Notes: generated by a model not told the origin, from the sequence alone. A stretch of 64,000 bases of DNA from Rhodospirillales bacterium (GCA_018666775.1 JABIXC010000011.1:12881-76880); one strand, 5' to 3'; shown: positions 35,700 to 40,259, numbered from the stretch's first letter. Numbers and translations are program-made.

Positions 35700-35776
<77 letters not shown>

Positions 35777-37061: not shown

Positions 37062-37290
37062 AAAACCTCACATATTAGAGCAAGCGGAAGCCGTCATTCT
37101 TCAAACTTCGAAAACGGCCCCCACCCCAGGGAAAATCGTTCCCGTCTATTCGGATTTTCTATTGTCAGGGGAACCTGTTAACCAAGCCTTAATATCAATC
37201 TCTAGGCCCCTGCCACAAAATGGCCAAAAATGTATGGCCTCTGTTGAATTGCTTGGCCGAAAGTGATACTGGAACACCAGCAAATTCGGG

Positions 37291-37306
37291 AAGCGGCATG
37301 CCGCTT
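37291..37306. promoter_or_regulatory. perfect 16-bp palindrome AAGCGGCATGCCGCTT in the divergent promoter region upstream of the cytochrome c gene
   Basis: Read directly. It lies 77 bp upstream of the cytochrome c start. Confidence 0.25.
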
Positions 37307-37382
37307 ATCAGTGGGGGTGGTCCTCTCTGGGATAACCCCCGGTAATTTCAGTTCTAAATTACAGTTCAAGGAGATGAACAAC

Positions 37383-37760
37383 ATGGCTAAATTTCGTTTT
37401 TTATCGGCATTACTGGCACTTGGCATTGTGTTTACAGGCACCAATGCAATTGCCGCAGGCGATGCCGCCAAAGGCAAGAAGGTCTACAAAAAATGCGCCA
37501 TCTGCCATTCGACCAAAGCTGGCAAGAATAAAATCGGCCCGAGCCTTCATGGCATATTTGGGCGCAAGGCTGCCAAGGGCAAGGGCTTTCGCTATTCAAA
37601 GCCGATGAAAAAATCCGGCCTGACCTGGGATGCAGCCACCCTCGACAAATTCCTTAAAAAGCCCCGCAAAGTGGTCAAGAAAACACGGATGACCTTCCCC
37701 GGCCTGCGTTCTGCATCTCAGCGCGCTGACGTTATTGCGTATATCAAATCGCTTAAGTAA
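37383..37760 (+). CDS. class I cytochrome c (c2/c550-like)
   Basis: Signal peptide, GDAAKGKKVYKKCAICH (CXXCH), GPSLHGIFGRKA and MTFPGL. The start was taken at the ATG 8 nt after AAGGAG. Confidence 0.9.
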   Translation: MAKFRFLSALLALGIVFTGTNAIAAGDAAKGKKVYKKCAICHSTKAGKNKIGPSLHGIFGRKAAKGKGFRYSKPMKKSGLTWDAATLDKFLKKPRKVVKKTRMTFPGLRSASQRADVIAYIKSLK

Positions 37761-37785
37761 CCACGAATACCTTTAAACGCATGCG

Positions 37786-37820
37786 AAAAAGGCCGGACAT
37801 ATGTCCGGCCTTTTTTCATT
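37786..37820. terminator. bidirectional intrinsic terminator (GGCCGGACAT / ATGTCCGGCC palindrome flanked by an A-run and a T-run)
   Basis: A 20-nt perfect palindrome with AAAAA on one side and TTTTTT on the other, sitting between convergent genes. Confidence 0.5.
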
Positions 37821-37825
37821 TTGCC

Positions 37826-38593
37826 CTAACCCAGAACGGCCCGTATTCGATCAACTCGGTCCGGCACGGAAATCATCTTATACGATGTAACCTCCAGGGT
37901 GCGATCTTCAAAGACCGTTGGGGCGGAACCGTCTTCTGCCGGGGCTGGGACCCATTTTTCAACCACCCCATCGCGCTCTTTGATCAAGGCGGCAATTTCA
38001 AATGCATACAAACGAACCATGGCGTTTAACCACCGATTGACCGGCCAGGATGGTTGGGCATGGGTGATTTCAAACATCCCGGTTAGTTCGATGACATCCT
38101 CACCTTTATACCAAATCTCGCCCGTGACCCAACGGTTGGTCGTGAACAAGCAAATCGGCTCACCCGCTTCATTCATGGAAATTCCAATGAGATGACTGAG
38201 CGCGTCAGTGGGATCATCCGGCATTTCAAAATCAGTTACCTCGGCCGGGCTCACATGATCAGGCATGCCTGCGGGACGCATAAATGTATGGAAATGCCCG
38301 TGTTCGCCAACCCTTAGATCAGCCGGATGCGCATGATAGAAAAACTGGCTGCCGCTATCCTTGTCATAGACATCGCCATCGGGATAATGATTCCATTCGT
38401 AAAATGTGCCCTTATCGCGCAGCAATTCACCGACGACATTGTCCCCGGTCTTTGCCAACACCGCCTTGATTTCCAGCGCCGTTTCACCCGCAACCCGCAT
38501 TTTTTCAAGGGCGTCACGGTCCAGTTGTTCAAGAGCCACATCGAAGGCGCTTTCTTCAATGTTATCTGCCTTATCTGCTGGTTTTACCACCAT
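37826..38593 (-). CDS. conserved hypothetical protein with a His-rich motif (FYHAHPADLRVGEHGHFHTF), possibly metal-binding
   Basis: A 255 aa ORF with no confident family assignment. Confidence 0.5.
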   Translation of the reverse strand: MVVKPADKADNIEESAFDVALEQLDRDALEKMRVAGETALEIKAVLAKTGDNVVGELLRDKGTFYEWNHYPDGDVYDKDSGSQFFYHAHPADLRVGEHGHFHTFMRPAGMPDHVSPAEVTDFEMPDDPTDALSHLIGISMNEAGEPICLFTTNRWVTGEIWYKGEDVIELTGMFEITHAQPSWPVNRWLNAMVRLYAFEIAALIKERDGVVEKWVPAPAEDGSAPTVFEDRTLEVTSYKMISVPDRVDRIRAVLG

Positions 38594-38775
38594 GATGCCT
38601 TGCCTTCATGCCATTACAAATACAGTCACTCGGGTTTTAAACACGCCCATCCCCTTTGAACAGTGCCGGGAACGCAGATCACGAATTTGTGACCCATTGT
38701 GCATTTTACGACGTTAAATCAAACGATAGGATTATGTCATACACTGGTTGCACATAAAAAAATGAGGATAAATTT

Positions 38776-39765
38776 ATGAAAACCTACCGCGATGGATTGC
38801 TTTCCGGCACCGTGCTTTCTGCCATCATTGGACTTTCCGGTTTTGGGATCAGTATTGGGATGGCCACCAATGCCCAAAGTGCTGGTCTGAACCTGCCCGC
38901 CCAACCCCGTGCAGAATCGACCCTGGTTGCGGCAAACAACCCCTGTAATCCCTGTGCCGCAAAAAATCCATGCGCGGCTAAGAACCCCTGCGCCGCTAAG
39001 AACCCCTGTGCGGCTAAGAACCCCTGTGCGGCTAAAAATCCCTGCGCCGCGAAAAACCCCTGCGCCGCGAAAAACCCGTGCAACCCGTGTGCCGCAAATC
39101 CATGCAACCCCTGTGCAGCAGGCGCATCGGCCAAAGCATCCAACTGTTTTGTCCCACGCCTGACAAAGGCCAAGGCCAACCCCTGTGCAGCCAAAAATCC
39201 CTGTGCCGCTAAAAATCCCTGTAACCCCTGTGGGGCCAAGAACCCTTGCGCCGCATCCGATGACATCGCAGTTTCCAATGCCGAAGCCGTCAAGGCTTAC
39301 GCCTGCATCAGGCCTGTGTTGCAAACAGCCTATGGCAAATCAGGAAATTCAGTCGCGCTGGCCTATACGAAATGGAAAGATTACAGCGCGGTCCCCTATC
39401 CATCATCCACCCATGGCGGCCGCTTTGTTCGCAACTACGCCAACCCCAAGGGGGCCAATTACGGAAAATTTGAAAAGTCCGGGATCATGCCCCAGGGCAC
39501 GGTTCTGGCCAAAGACAGTTTTTCGGTTACCAAAACCGGTGCCGTCGCCCCCGGCCCCTTATTCTTGATGGAAAAAATGGGCCGTGGCTTTAACAAGGCA
39601 TCGGGAAATTGGCGCTACACCATGATCATGCCCAATGGGACAACATTCGGCGTTACCAAAGGCAAAAATTCGGCCGGAATGAAATTCTGCACCGAATGCC
39701 ACGCGGCTGTCGGTGAAAATCAGGATCACATGTTCTTCCTTCCCGAAGAATTCCGATCAAAGTAA
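38776..39765 (+). CDS. cytochrome P460 / cytochrome c'-beta family haem protein with an N-terminal Cys-rich (NPCAAK)n tandem-repeat region
   Basis: Signal peptide, about 17 NPC units, then a C-terminal domain with QGTVLAKDSFSV, GNWRYTMIMP, a CTECH haem site and DHMFFLPEEF. The P460 match is from memory. Confidence 0.7.
   Translation: MKTYRDGLLSGTVLSAIIGLSGFGISIGMATNAQSAGLNLPAQPRAESTLVAANNPCNPCAAKNPCAAKNPCAAKNPCAAKNPCAAKNPCAAKNPCAAKNPCNPCAANPCNPCAAGASAKASNCFVPRLTKAKANPCAAKNPCAAKNPCNPCGAKNPCAASDDIAVSNAEAVKAYACIRPVLQTAYGKSGNSVALAYTKWKDYSAVPYPSSTHGGRFVRNYANPKGANYGKFEKSGIMPQGTVLAKDSFSVTKTGAVAPGPLFLMEKMGRGFNKASGNWRYTMIMPNGTTFGVTKGKNSAGMKFCTECHAAVGENQDHMFFLPEEFRSK
38935..39255 (+). repeat. coding 18-bp tandem repeat array (AAR AAY CCN TGY GCN GCN), about 10 units in two blocks
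   Basis: Read directly. The units differ mainly at synonymous positions. Confidence 0.9.
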
Positions 39766-39797
39766 CCTTTATACCCAAAATATGTTGATTCAAGATC

Positions 39798-39828
39798 GGG
39801 CGGGAACAATGTTCCCGCCCATTTTGTG
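39798..39828 (+). terminator. intrinsic terminator after the P460-like gene
   Basis: Perfect 10-bp stem GGGCGGGAAC / GTTCCCGCCC with an AAT loop, followed by ATTTTGTG. Confidence 0.55.
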
Positions 39829-39830
39829 AA

Positions 39831-40259
39831 TTAGTCTCTCACCACCAAAACTGAAACATCGGCATGGCGCACCACCTGCGCCGCATTCGGCCCCAACAGA
39901 TAATCTTTCAATGCCGGGCGATGGGACGCCATGATGACAAGATCAGCGCCAATTTCGTGCACGGTATCCAAAATTTCCTGATAAATGGTGCCCTGGGCAA
40001 CGTGGCACGCCACCTTGATGTCGGCGGGCACCTGATCATCGATCAGCTTTCCCAATCTTTGGACGGTTTCGGTTTGCGCTTTTTCCATAAAGCCCGGTGG
40101 GAAATATCCCCCAACCAAACCTGTGCCAAAATCAGGGAGCACCGTCAGCGCATGAAGTTCCGCACCAAAAGCCTTGTTGTATTCGATCGCCACCGGAAAC
40201 GCGCTGGCCCAGGAACTTTCCTGATCAATATCCACAGGAACCAAAATTATTTTGTACAT
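39831..40259 (-). CDS. universal stress protein (UspA family)
   Basis: A 142 aa protein with ILVPVD and a C-terminal GSHRPALKDYLLGPNAAQVVRHADVSVLVV ATP-binding motif. Confidence 0.85.
   Translation of the reverse strand: MYKIILVPVDIDQESSWASAFPVAIEYNKAFGAELHALTVLPDFGTGLVGGYFPPGFMEKAQTETVQRLGKLIDDQVPADIKVACHVAQGTIYQEILDTVHEIGADLVIMASHRPALKDYLLGPNAAQVVRHADVSVLVVRD

Follow-up and report, generated by a model that had tools for sequence, protein, structure and literature searches.

Genomic pairing of DUF6969 with a P460-like haem protein bearing a cysteine-repeat arm in a Rhodospirillales bacterium

RESULTS

Layout of the locus

We analysed a window of 64,000 nucleotides from a Rhodospirillales bacterium (GCA_018666775.1 JABIXC010000011.1:12881-76880), concentrating on the region from 37291 to 39828. 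This region holds genes for an exported mitochondrial-type class I cytochrome c of 125 amino acids (37383 to 37760, plus strand), a DUF6969 protein of 255 amino acids (37826 to 38593, minus strand), and an exported P460-like haem protein of 329 amino acids, consisting of a signal peptide, a cysteine-repeat arm, and a P460-fold domain (38776 to 39765, plus strand). Genomic comparisons indicate that the latter two genes are a genuine and previously undescribed pair and that DUF6969 tracks the cysteine repeat of its partner, not the P460 domain or its chemistry.

A preliminary description of this region had read the three genes as one bounded unit. Its individual features were found where it had placed them, the open reading frame (ORF) list and the sequence agreeing with its coordinates for all genes, for both terminators, and for a 16-bp palindrome upstream. 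The cytochrome c gene is followed by a strong bidirectional terminator of the intrinsic type, placed where the cytochrome c and DUF6969 genes converge (37786 to 37815), a perfect palindrome with an A-run and a T-run that folds with -25.5 and -25.7 kcal/mol on the two strands (z -5.6 and -4.1); the two stop codons are 65 bp apart. On the opposite strand, the 255-amino-acid ORF carries the expected histidine motif (YHAH...GEHGHFH). The P460-like gene has an intrinsic terminator of its own (39798 to 39820, plus strand; -26.3 kcal/mol, z -4.6), in which an 11-bp G+C-rich stem is followed by ATTTTGTG, and a universal stress protein (Usp) gene lies beyond it (39831 to 40259, minus strand). What did not survive is the single unit itself: given the strand order plus, minus, plus and the strong terminators at 37786 to 37815 and 39798 to 39820, the region is three separately transcribed genes.

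The P460-like protein and its key residues

The P460-like ORF matches PF16694 over residues 199 to 320 with 33.7 bits, above the 27-bit cut-off (E 5.4e-8). A single-sequence search of solved structures with this protein gave low-complexity noise only, so that family profiles were needed; the P460-family profile reaches the solved chains 7EAD, 7S5O, 6HIU, and 2JE2. For the 168-residue domain that follows the arm (39259 to 39762, plus strand), a model was predicted with a predicted local distance difference test (pLDDT) score of 85. When this model was compared with the PDB by Foldseek, the top 17 matches were all P460 or c'-beta proteins (probability 1.0, template modelling score 0.41 to 0.62). 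Near the C terminus lies the haem motif C305-T-E-C-H309 (39688 to 39702), and exactly one CxxCH is present in 120 of 121 family members.

For the residues around the haem, the numbering of P460 and c'-beta proteins was taken from PMC11928373, Table 2. In profile alignments with the deposited chains, K246 (39511 to 39513) falls opposite the cross-link lysine of McP460 (K78) and NeP460 (K70) and opposite Phe61 of TtCP-beta and Met79 of NeCP-beta. Lysine occupies this position in all 25 close members and in 47 of 53 diverse members of the subfamily. Cytochromes P460 that oxidise hydroxylamine have a distal carboxylate in a precise position (NeP460 Glu96, McP460 Asp102). E266, within MEKM (39571 to 39573), falls opposite the catalytic, proton-relay Glu96 of NeP460 and opposite TtCP-beta Gly82 in profile alignments of 17 to 20% identity, and the glutamate is likewise present in 47 of the 53 diverse members. 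Asp102 of McP460 lands inside an insertion, and the alignments with NeCP-beta and McP460 do not agree on the carboxylate. A valine stands at the position of the capping Arg50 of McP460. The earlier P460-like call is thereby upheld, as Pfam, the predicted fold, the CxxCH, the cross-link lysine, and a glutamate aligned with Glu96 all concur; as judged from sequence and predicted structure, the protein is a member of the cytochrome P460/c'-beta superfamily.

A mobile cysteine-repeat arm

The arm (38935 to 39255, plus strand) comprises about 130 residues of NPCAAK and NPCNPCAAK repeats around a conserved C-x-VPRL linker and holds almost all of the 21 cysteines of the protein. Part of it is encoded by an 18-bp tandem DNA repeat (38950 to 39081; 7.3 copies, 85% matches), the copy number of which could change by slippage; all four same-species contigs examined encode 329 amino acids.

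A homologue search with the P460-like protein gave 1492 matches, the best 120 of which share the same architecture with a median of 30 cysteines. When the subfamily was clustered at 50% identity, 172 representatives remained below E 1e-30, and since only 28 of the 109 full-length representatives have repeats, the arm is, at the level of sequence comparison, an optional addition to the P460-like subfamily. In eight Kiloniellaceae-type loci (L028, L041, L042, L047, L053, L058, L068, and L072), we observed a tandem pair of P460-like genes whose domains are 46 to 52% identical to that of the window.

With the repeat alone as the query, the same repeat was found in many phyla beside SoxA/TsdA-type mono-haem cytochromes (PF21342), CusF-like barrels, LysM, TPR, or P460 domains, or on its own. 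It stands at the N and C termini of the SoxA/TsdA-like, CusF-like, LysM, and TPR proteins and makes up secreted peptides of repeats only (proteins P0241 to P0360), and these distributions indicate that the NPCAAK repeat is a mobile module. A different placement was seen in protein P0500, where an NPCAAK-type repeat is inserted within the P460 domain. The searchable literature held nothing relevant on NPCAAK repeat peptides or on P460 domains fused to cysteine repeats, and a 2025 review of the P460/c'-beta superfamily makes no mention of fusions to cysteine repeats.

The DUF6969 protein

The ORF on the opposite strand matches PF22308 over profile positions 3 to 199 of 201 (E 2.3e-77). It contains YHAHPADLRVGEHGHFH and an invariant histidine/glutamate cluster formed by H69, H87, H89, E97, H98, H100, and H102; a homologue search found 3515 relatives. 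No signal peptide was found in the protein, which by this token is cytoplasmic and hence not the periplasmic accessory that the preliminary description had envisaged.

That description had also proposed a structure prediction for the histidine-rich protein. The prediction yielded a confident model (pLDDT 88), yet no PDB structure matches it. A cupin metalloprotein, considered on account of the HxH...E...H motif, was set aside because DUF6969 does not have the cupin beta-barrel fold. DUF6969 was also considered as a possible transcription factor, but a permissive Pfam scan detected no DNA-binding domain in it. The searchable literature held nothing relevant on DUF6969.

Pairing of DUF6969 with P460-like and repeat-bearing proteins

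A scan of species-representative genomes centred on the P460-like gene returned 80 loci, nearly all from uncultured marine Alphaproteobacteria, of which 45 were fully flanked. DUF6969 was counted as a neighbour when it lay within 4 kb of the P460-like gene, which was the case in 15 of these 45 species-level loci: in 10 together with a gene for an FGE-like protein (FGE, formylglycine-generating enzyme), in 4 with both an FGE-like and a class I cytochrome c gene, and in 1 with cytochrome c only, the arrangement of the window. Class I cytochrome c was the sole one of these neighbours in 11 loci and the FGE-like gene in 1, and the remaining 18 had none of the three. The DUF6969 and P460-like genes occur in at least five arrangements, namely divergent in either order relative to the FGE-like gene, co-directional as P460>FGE>DUF6969 (L046), as P460>DUF6969 (L057, L059, and L060), and without the FGE-like gene; most of these loci lie outside the conserved backbone of TRAP, Usp, and SpbR genes described below. 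The link between the histidine-rich protein and the P460-like gene that had been proposed at the outset was thus borne out by their adjacency in these 15 loci, by the variety of arrangements, and by a conserved promoter element common to both genes. We regard the two, on this comparative evidence, as a genuine pair.

DUF6969 also accompanies repeat-bearing proteins of other kinds. Of six repeat-bearing non-P460 proteins examined, three SoxA/TsdA-like cytochromes (L169, L170, and L172) have DUF6969 immediately downstream or one gene off. ORFs that consist of only a signal peptide and the repeat adjoin DUF6969 in L105, L148, L158, L164, and L166, and those in L158 and L166 fill the slot of the P460-like gene. 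Because DUF6969 adjoins repeat proteins with a different haem domain as well as repeat-only peptides, these comparisons indicate that it tracks the cysteine repeat and not the P460 domain or its chemistry. A correlation between DUF6969 adjacency and possession of the repeat among the P460-like genes themselves has no power here, as 43 of the 45 fully flanked P460-like genes bear repeats.

The commonest neighbour of DUF6969 is the FGE-like gene, which encodes a periplasmic protein of about 295 amino acids with an FGE-sulfatase fold (for example, L002 2788 to 3678, minus strand; L032 8408 to 9295, minus strand; L085 5040 to 5933, plus strand). No curated subfamily fits this protein, nor does any curated model of formylglycine-generating enzymes; its best solved relative is ToxD, and two cysteines near a C-terminal GGSW motif are kept. 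The closest relatives of the window (L002, L004, L090, L092, and L093) have the FGE-like gene between the DUF6969 and cytochrome c genes. A tblastn search with 25 FGE-like partner sequences found no such gene or remnant in the whole window, and this comparison indicates a clean loss of the gene in this organism, from between the stop codons of DUF6969 and cytochrome c.

A promoter element common to the pair

The 182-bp divergent region between the DUF6969 and P460-like genes is poorly conserved save for TCACGAATTTGTGA (38679 to 38692), which lies at its centre and is kept in L002, L004, and L090 despite diverged flanks. This sequence is an instance of the inverted repeat TCAC-N6-GTGA, of which it is the sole exact copy in the window. 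The element stands upstream of 40 of 73 testable P460-like genes, usually 90 to 150 bp before the start codon, with the consensus TCACR-N4-YGTGA.

Apart from the copy in the window, the 1.9 Mb of fetched loci contain 66 copies, with a background of one per 29 kb; L017 (about 9186), L085 (5937), and L094 (1964 and 2030) provide examples. For 47 of the 66, the 5' end of a cysteine-repeat ORF is no more than 700 bp away, and 2 lie upstream of repeat-less P460-like genes of Kiloniella; for the gene of the culturable Kiloniella laminariae, the motif stands at L043 9769. A further 11 adjoin DUF6969 or FGE-like genes, almost always directly upstream of them and mostly in loci without a P460-like gene. 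The element is absent from the non-alphaproteobacterial repeat loci L169 to L174, and the motif is therefore lineage specific. No copy with up to one mismatch was found upstream of the cytochrome c gene (37062 to 37382). Because the element is common to the promoters of P460-like or cysteine-repeat, DUF6969, and FGE-like genes and has no copy at the cytochrome c gene, it provides independent evidence, from sequence comparison, that the former are co-regulated and that the cytochrome c gene of the window is not. TCAC-N6-GTGA is thus a candidate shared operator of the DUF6969 and P460-like genes.

The cytochrome c gene and the 16-bp palindrome

The cytochrome c matches PF00034 (E 3.6e-12) and aligns over its full length with its best solved relatives, the mitochondrial-type cytochromes c and c2 (E 2e-29). 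Its translation shows an N-terminal signal sequence, a CAICH haem motif, and a methionine ligand in TRMTFPGL, so that the PF00034 match, CxxCH, distal methionine, and export signal of a class I cytochrome c are all present. With mitochondrial-type cytochrome c2/c550 it shares the CxxCH, the methionine ligand, the signal peptide, and a length of about 100 mature residues, whereas against the CycA equivalog model it scores 91.8 bits, below the cut-off of 240.

The preliminary description took this cytochrome to be dedicated to the P460-like protein. In a survey centred on DUF6969 (80 metagenome loci and several long contigs), the dominant backbone consists of TRAP, Usp, FGE-like, DUF6969, sometimes cytochrome c on the opposite strand, and SpbR genes; a P460-like gene occurs in this backbone in about 10 of the 80 DUF6969-centred loci. 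The cytochrome c gene lies between DUF6969 and SpbR in L087, L088, L094, L134, L137, and others that have no P460-like gene at all. Because it occupies the same slot in such loci, and with a promoter that has no TCAC-N6-GTGA, these comparisons show the cytochrome c of the window to be a resident backbone gene with its own promoter and not one dedicated to the P460-like gene. Class I cytochrome c genes adjoin P460-like genes in 16 of the 45 fully flanked loci, in several arrangements. Of the proposed co-occurrence of the three genes across genomes, the DUF6969/P460-like pairing was recovered, and cytochrome c as a dedicated member was not.

The three genes of the window have an SpbR/DUF2336 gene (minus strand) upstream and a fused TRAP permease downstream, and an identical gene order of the same organism was found in several marine metagenome assemblies. 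Further upstream, the amidohydrolase and SpbR genes flank a gene for tRNA-Pro (CGG) (35700 to 35776, minus strand).

In the spacer between the SpbR and cytochrome c genes, the perfect 16-bp palindrome AAGCGGCATGCCGCTT is present exactly at 37291 to 37306, as first described, where it had been suggested to act as the operator of the cluster. We do not retain this suggestion. Including the terminator, the window contains two perfect 16-bp palindromes, where about one is expected per 64 kb; no second copy of AAGCGGCATGCCGCTT exists in the window at up to three mismatches, and as many matches arise in 46 of 100 shuffles. Nothing stands out in its RNA fold (z -0.3 and -1.3), and L002 and L004, the closest relatives, do not keep it in their orthologous spacers between SpbR and cytochrome c. 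Being unique, unconserved, and of chance-level frequency, the palindrome is probably incidental and is unsupported as an operator. Upstream of it, at 37100 to 37275, the same spacer contains blocks conserved with L002 and L004 (GTTAA...CTTAA and, with a promoter-like spacing, CTGTTGAATTGC...GTGATAC). These blocks probably constitute the cytochrome c promoter.

DISCUSSION

The account of the locus that we consider best as a whole, and hold with moderate confidence, combines the P460-like/DUF6969 pair and the resident cytochrome c with a periplasmic oxidation mechanism. As read from the alignments and the predicted model, the P460 domain would carry a lysine-cross-linked, five-coordinate haem with a glutamate proton relay. 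By analogy with its characterised relatives, it may oxidise a small nucleophile in the periplasm, for which hydroxylamine or NO is the best precedent; detoxification of these compounds may be its function. The acceptor of the electrons would be a soluble cytochrome c of class I, for which the neighbour is a plausible candidate, and from there they would reach the respiratory chain. Given potentials of -300 to -424 mV for the P460 haems that have been characterised (PMC11928373), electrons would run downhill to a mitochondrial-type cytochrome c.

The thiol-rich arm might be a tether that carries, traps, or buffers the substrate or product, a role suggested by the association of the DUF6969 partner with this arm, which also keeps sulphur or metal chemistry in play as live rivals. 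DUF6969 would then serve the arm and not the haem chemistry: it might be a sensor, or it might act ahead of export as a metal-dependent factor for maturation or handling. In the majority of relatives, it may act with the periplasmic FGE-like protein, lost from this locus. An FGE-sulfatase-fold accessory beside a periplasmic nitrogen-oxide enzyme is familiar from the NirK-NirV pairing, to which the FGE-like protein of about 295 amino acids beside the P460-like and DUF6969 genes of most relatives may be likened, although the window has no FGE-like gene. For NirV together with formylglycine, the searchable literature offers passing mentions only.

The closest characterised counterpart of the haem domain is cytochrome P460 itself, represented by NeP460 of Nitrosomonas europaea (2JE2/2JE3) and McP460 of Methylococcus capsulatus (6HIU). 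With these the window protein shares the beta-sheet P460 fold (in its predicted model), the single C-terminal CxxCH, the position of the cross-link lysine, the periplasmic location, and a small class I cytochrome c as a frequent neighbour, and it has a glutamate that aligns with NeP460 Glu96. At 17 to 20% identity, it differs from them in having cysteine repeats of about 130 residues and a further helical segment ahead of the domain, in the valine that replaces the capping Arg50 of McP460, in the candidate operator motif of its gene, and in its DUF6969 partner. Its hosts, too, are different: they are heterotroph-like marine Alphaproteobacteria that have not been cultured, and their loci have no amo, hao, or nir genes in the vicinity. 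The cytochromes c'-beta (McCP-beta, 6HIH; TtCP-beta, 7EAD; NeCP-beta, 7S5O) have the same fold and, of all solved structures, match best in sequence (E 8e-8 and 2e-7 with a broader profile). However, they carry Phe or Met where the window family has lysine, and Gly or Ala where it has glutamate, and they bind gases and do not oxidise substrates.

Several observations weigh against the account that we favour. For the lysine-haem cross-link and the E266 geometry, the basis is a set of alignments at 17 to 20% identity together with a predicted model, and the alignment with NeCP-beta sets a glycine, not E266, opposite the listed equivalent Ala109. DUF6969 is cytoplasmic by its sequence while its presumed client is periplasmic, so that a direct role would require a step before export or a regulatory function. 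No repeat gene lies nearby in 17 of the 25 fully flanked DUF6969 loci, and of the 43 repeat-bearing P460-like genes in the 45 fully flanked loci, 28 have no DUF6969 nearby, which means that the coupling of DUF6969 to the repeat is not obligatory in cis. Much of the synteny, coming as it does from related Alphaproteobacteria, lacks phylogenetic independence. Finally, no nitrogen-cycle or sulphur-cycle genes were found in the neighbourhood.

Among the alternatives, the one that survives best, though we think it unlikely, assigns the pair to periplasmic sulphur or thiol redox chemistry. The poly-cysteine arm would carry sulphane or thiosulphate-type adducts in the manner of a SoxY-like swinging arm, and the haem domain would oxidise these adducts and deliver electrons to cytochrome c. 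The likeness to the SoxYZ arm and SoxAX concerns a possible mode of action, not homology: a cysteine on a flexible arm, a c-type haem as the oxidant, and a small cytochrome c as the acceptor. There is no sequence relationship between the two, and SoxY has a single C-terminal cysteine compared with the 21 of the window protein. The occurrence of the same repeat beside SoxA/TsdA-type mono-haem cytochromes in many phyla is in keeping with sulphur chemistry. So are three repeat-cytochrome loci (L170 2585 to 4687, L172 7074 to 9215, and L174 7877 to 9534) that also hold a YeeE-like Sulf_transp gene and a gene for a conserved 155-amino-acid periplasmic protein with a weak cupredoxin-like match; two of the three contain DUF6969, and L170 and L172 contain a DUF302 gene as well. 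However, these three loci, from unrelated organisms, make up the whole of the sulphur link, the repeat also stands beside CusF-like, LysM, and TPR domains, the precedents for the P460 fold are confined to nitrogen oxides, and the locus in the window has no sox, sqr, or sulphur-transport genes near it.

The reading of the preliminary description, in which the three genes form one dedicated periplasmic unit for the detoxification of hydroxylamine or NO, with the P460 enzyme, its own cytochrome c, and a histidine-rich accessory run from the 16-bp palindrome, appears improbable to us. It shares with our preferred account the P460 fold, the cross-link lysine, and the glutamate at the Glu96 position. 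It could also appeal to the recurrence of cytochrome c genes beside P460-like genes in 16 of 45 loci, and in particular to L018, L023, L066, and L079, in which the P460-like gene is followed directly, on its own strand, by a close homologue of the window cytochrome c (59 to 63% identity). Yet the genes of the window alternate in strand with terminators between them, the cytochrome c gene persists in genomes without a P460-like gene and lacks the shared promoter element, and the palindrome is neither repeated nor conserved. DUF6969, for its part, has no signal peptide and also partners haem proteins other than P460.

It is also conceivable, but in our judgement very unlikely, that the arm binds or buffers soft metals such as Cu(I), Zn, Cd, or Hg in the periplasm, with the histidine cluster of DUF6969 and the FGE-like protein handling the metal and the P460 domain being incidental to the pairing. 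FGE is a copper enzyme, and the FGE-like partner keeps two cysteines near its C-terminal GGSW motif. The repeat occurs beside CusF-like barrels, one such protein being named a Cu/Ag efflux protein in one source, and the repeat-cytochrome locus L173 lies near CopZ and HMA genes. Locus L173, however, has no DUF6969, the window locus has no metal transporter or metal regulator, and CxxC motifs in the periplasm are prone to form disulphides. The absence of any functional relationship, that is, backbone synteny inherited within one alphaproteobacterial lineage plus a chance insertion of a P460-like gene, is strongly disfavoured: the TRAP, Usp, FGE, DUF6969, (cytochrome c), SpbR backbone is indeed widespread without a P460-like gene, which is found in only about 10 of the 80 DUF6969-centred loci, but the P460-like, FGE, and DUF6969 genes travel together outside this backbone in several orders, they have in common a promoter element that is otherwise rare, and DUF6969 adjoins repeat proteins in unrelated loci.

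Returning to the pair as we understand it, a broader proposal is possible, which we put forward tentatively and would not call probable. DUF6969 and the NPCAAK module may represent an unrecognised system that extends across phyla, in which a cytoplasmic histidine-cluster protein of a new fold is dedicated to exported proteins with poly-cysteine arms. Its clients would include P460-type and SoxA/TsdA-type cytochromes as well as repeat-only peptides, and the arm would act either as a tethered thiol carrier of a new type or as the target of a novel post-translational modification. In Alphaproteobacteria, the periplasmic FGE-like protein would usually join this system, and a TCAC-N6-GTGA operator would control that branch of it.

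In conclusion, work on P460 proteins has so far concerned sources of N2O and hydroxylamine detoxifiers in nitrifiers and methanotrophs. The subfamily described here is abundant in uncultured marine Alphaproteobacteria and keeps the cross-link lysine and a candidate proton-relay glutamate; if our account is true, it would extend P460 chemistry to heterotrophs of the ocean. For DUF6969, a family of more than 3500 sequences, the genomic context, a defined cis-element, and a candidate client provide a first lead. The NPCAAK cysteine repeat appears to be a new module, carried in various phyla by haem proteins and by periplasmic proteins of other kinds, and its association with DUF6969 has a substantial chance of being a system not yet recognised.

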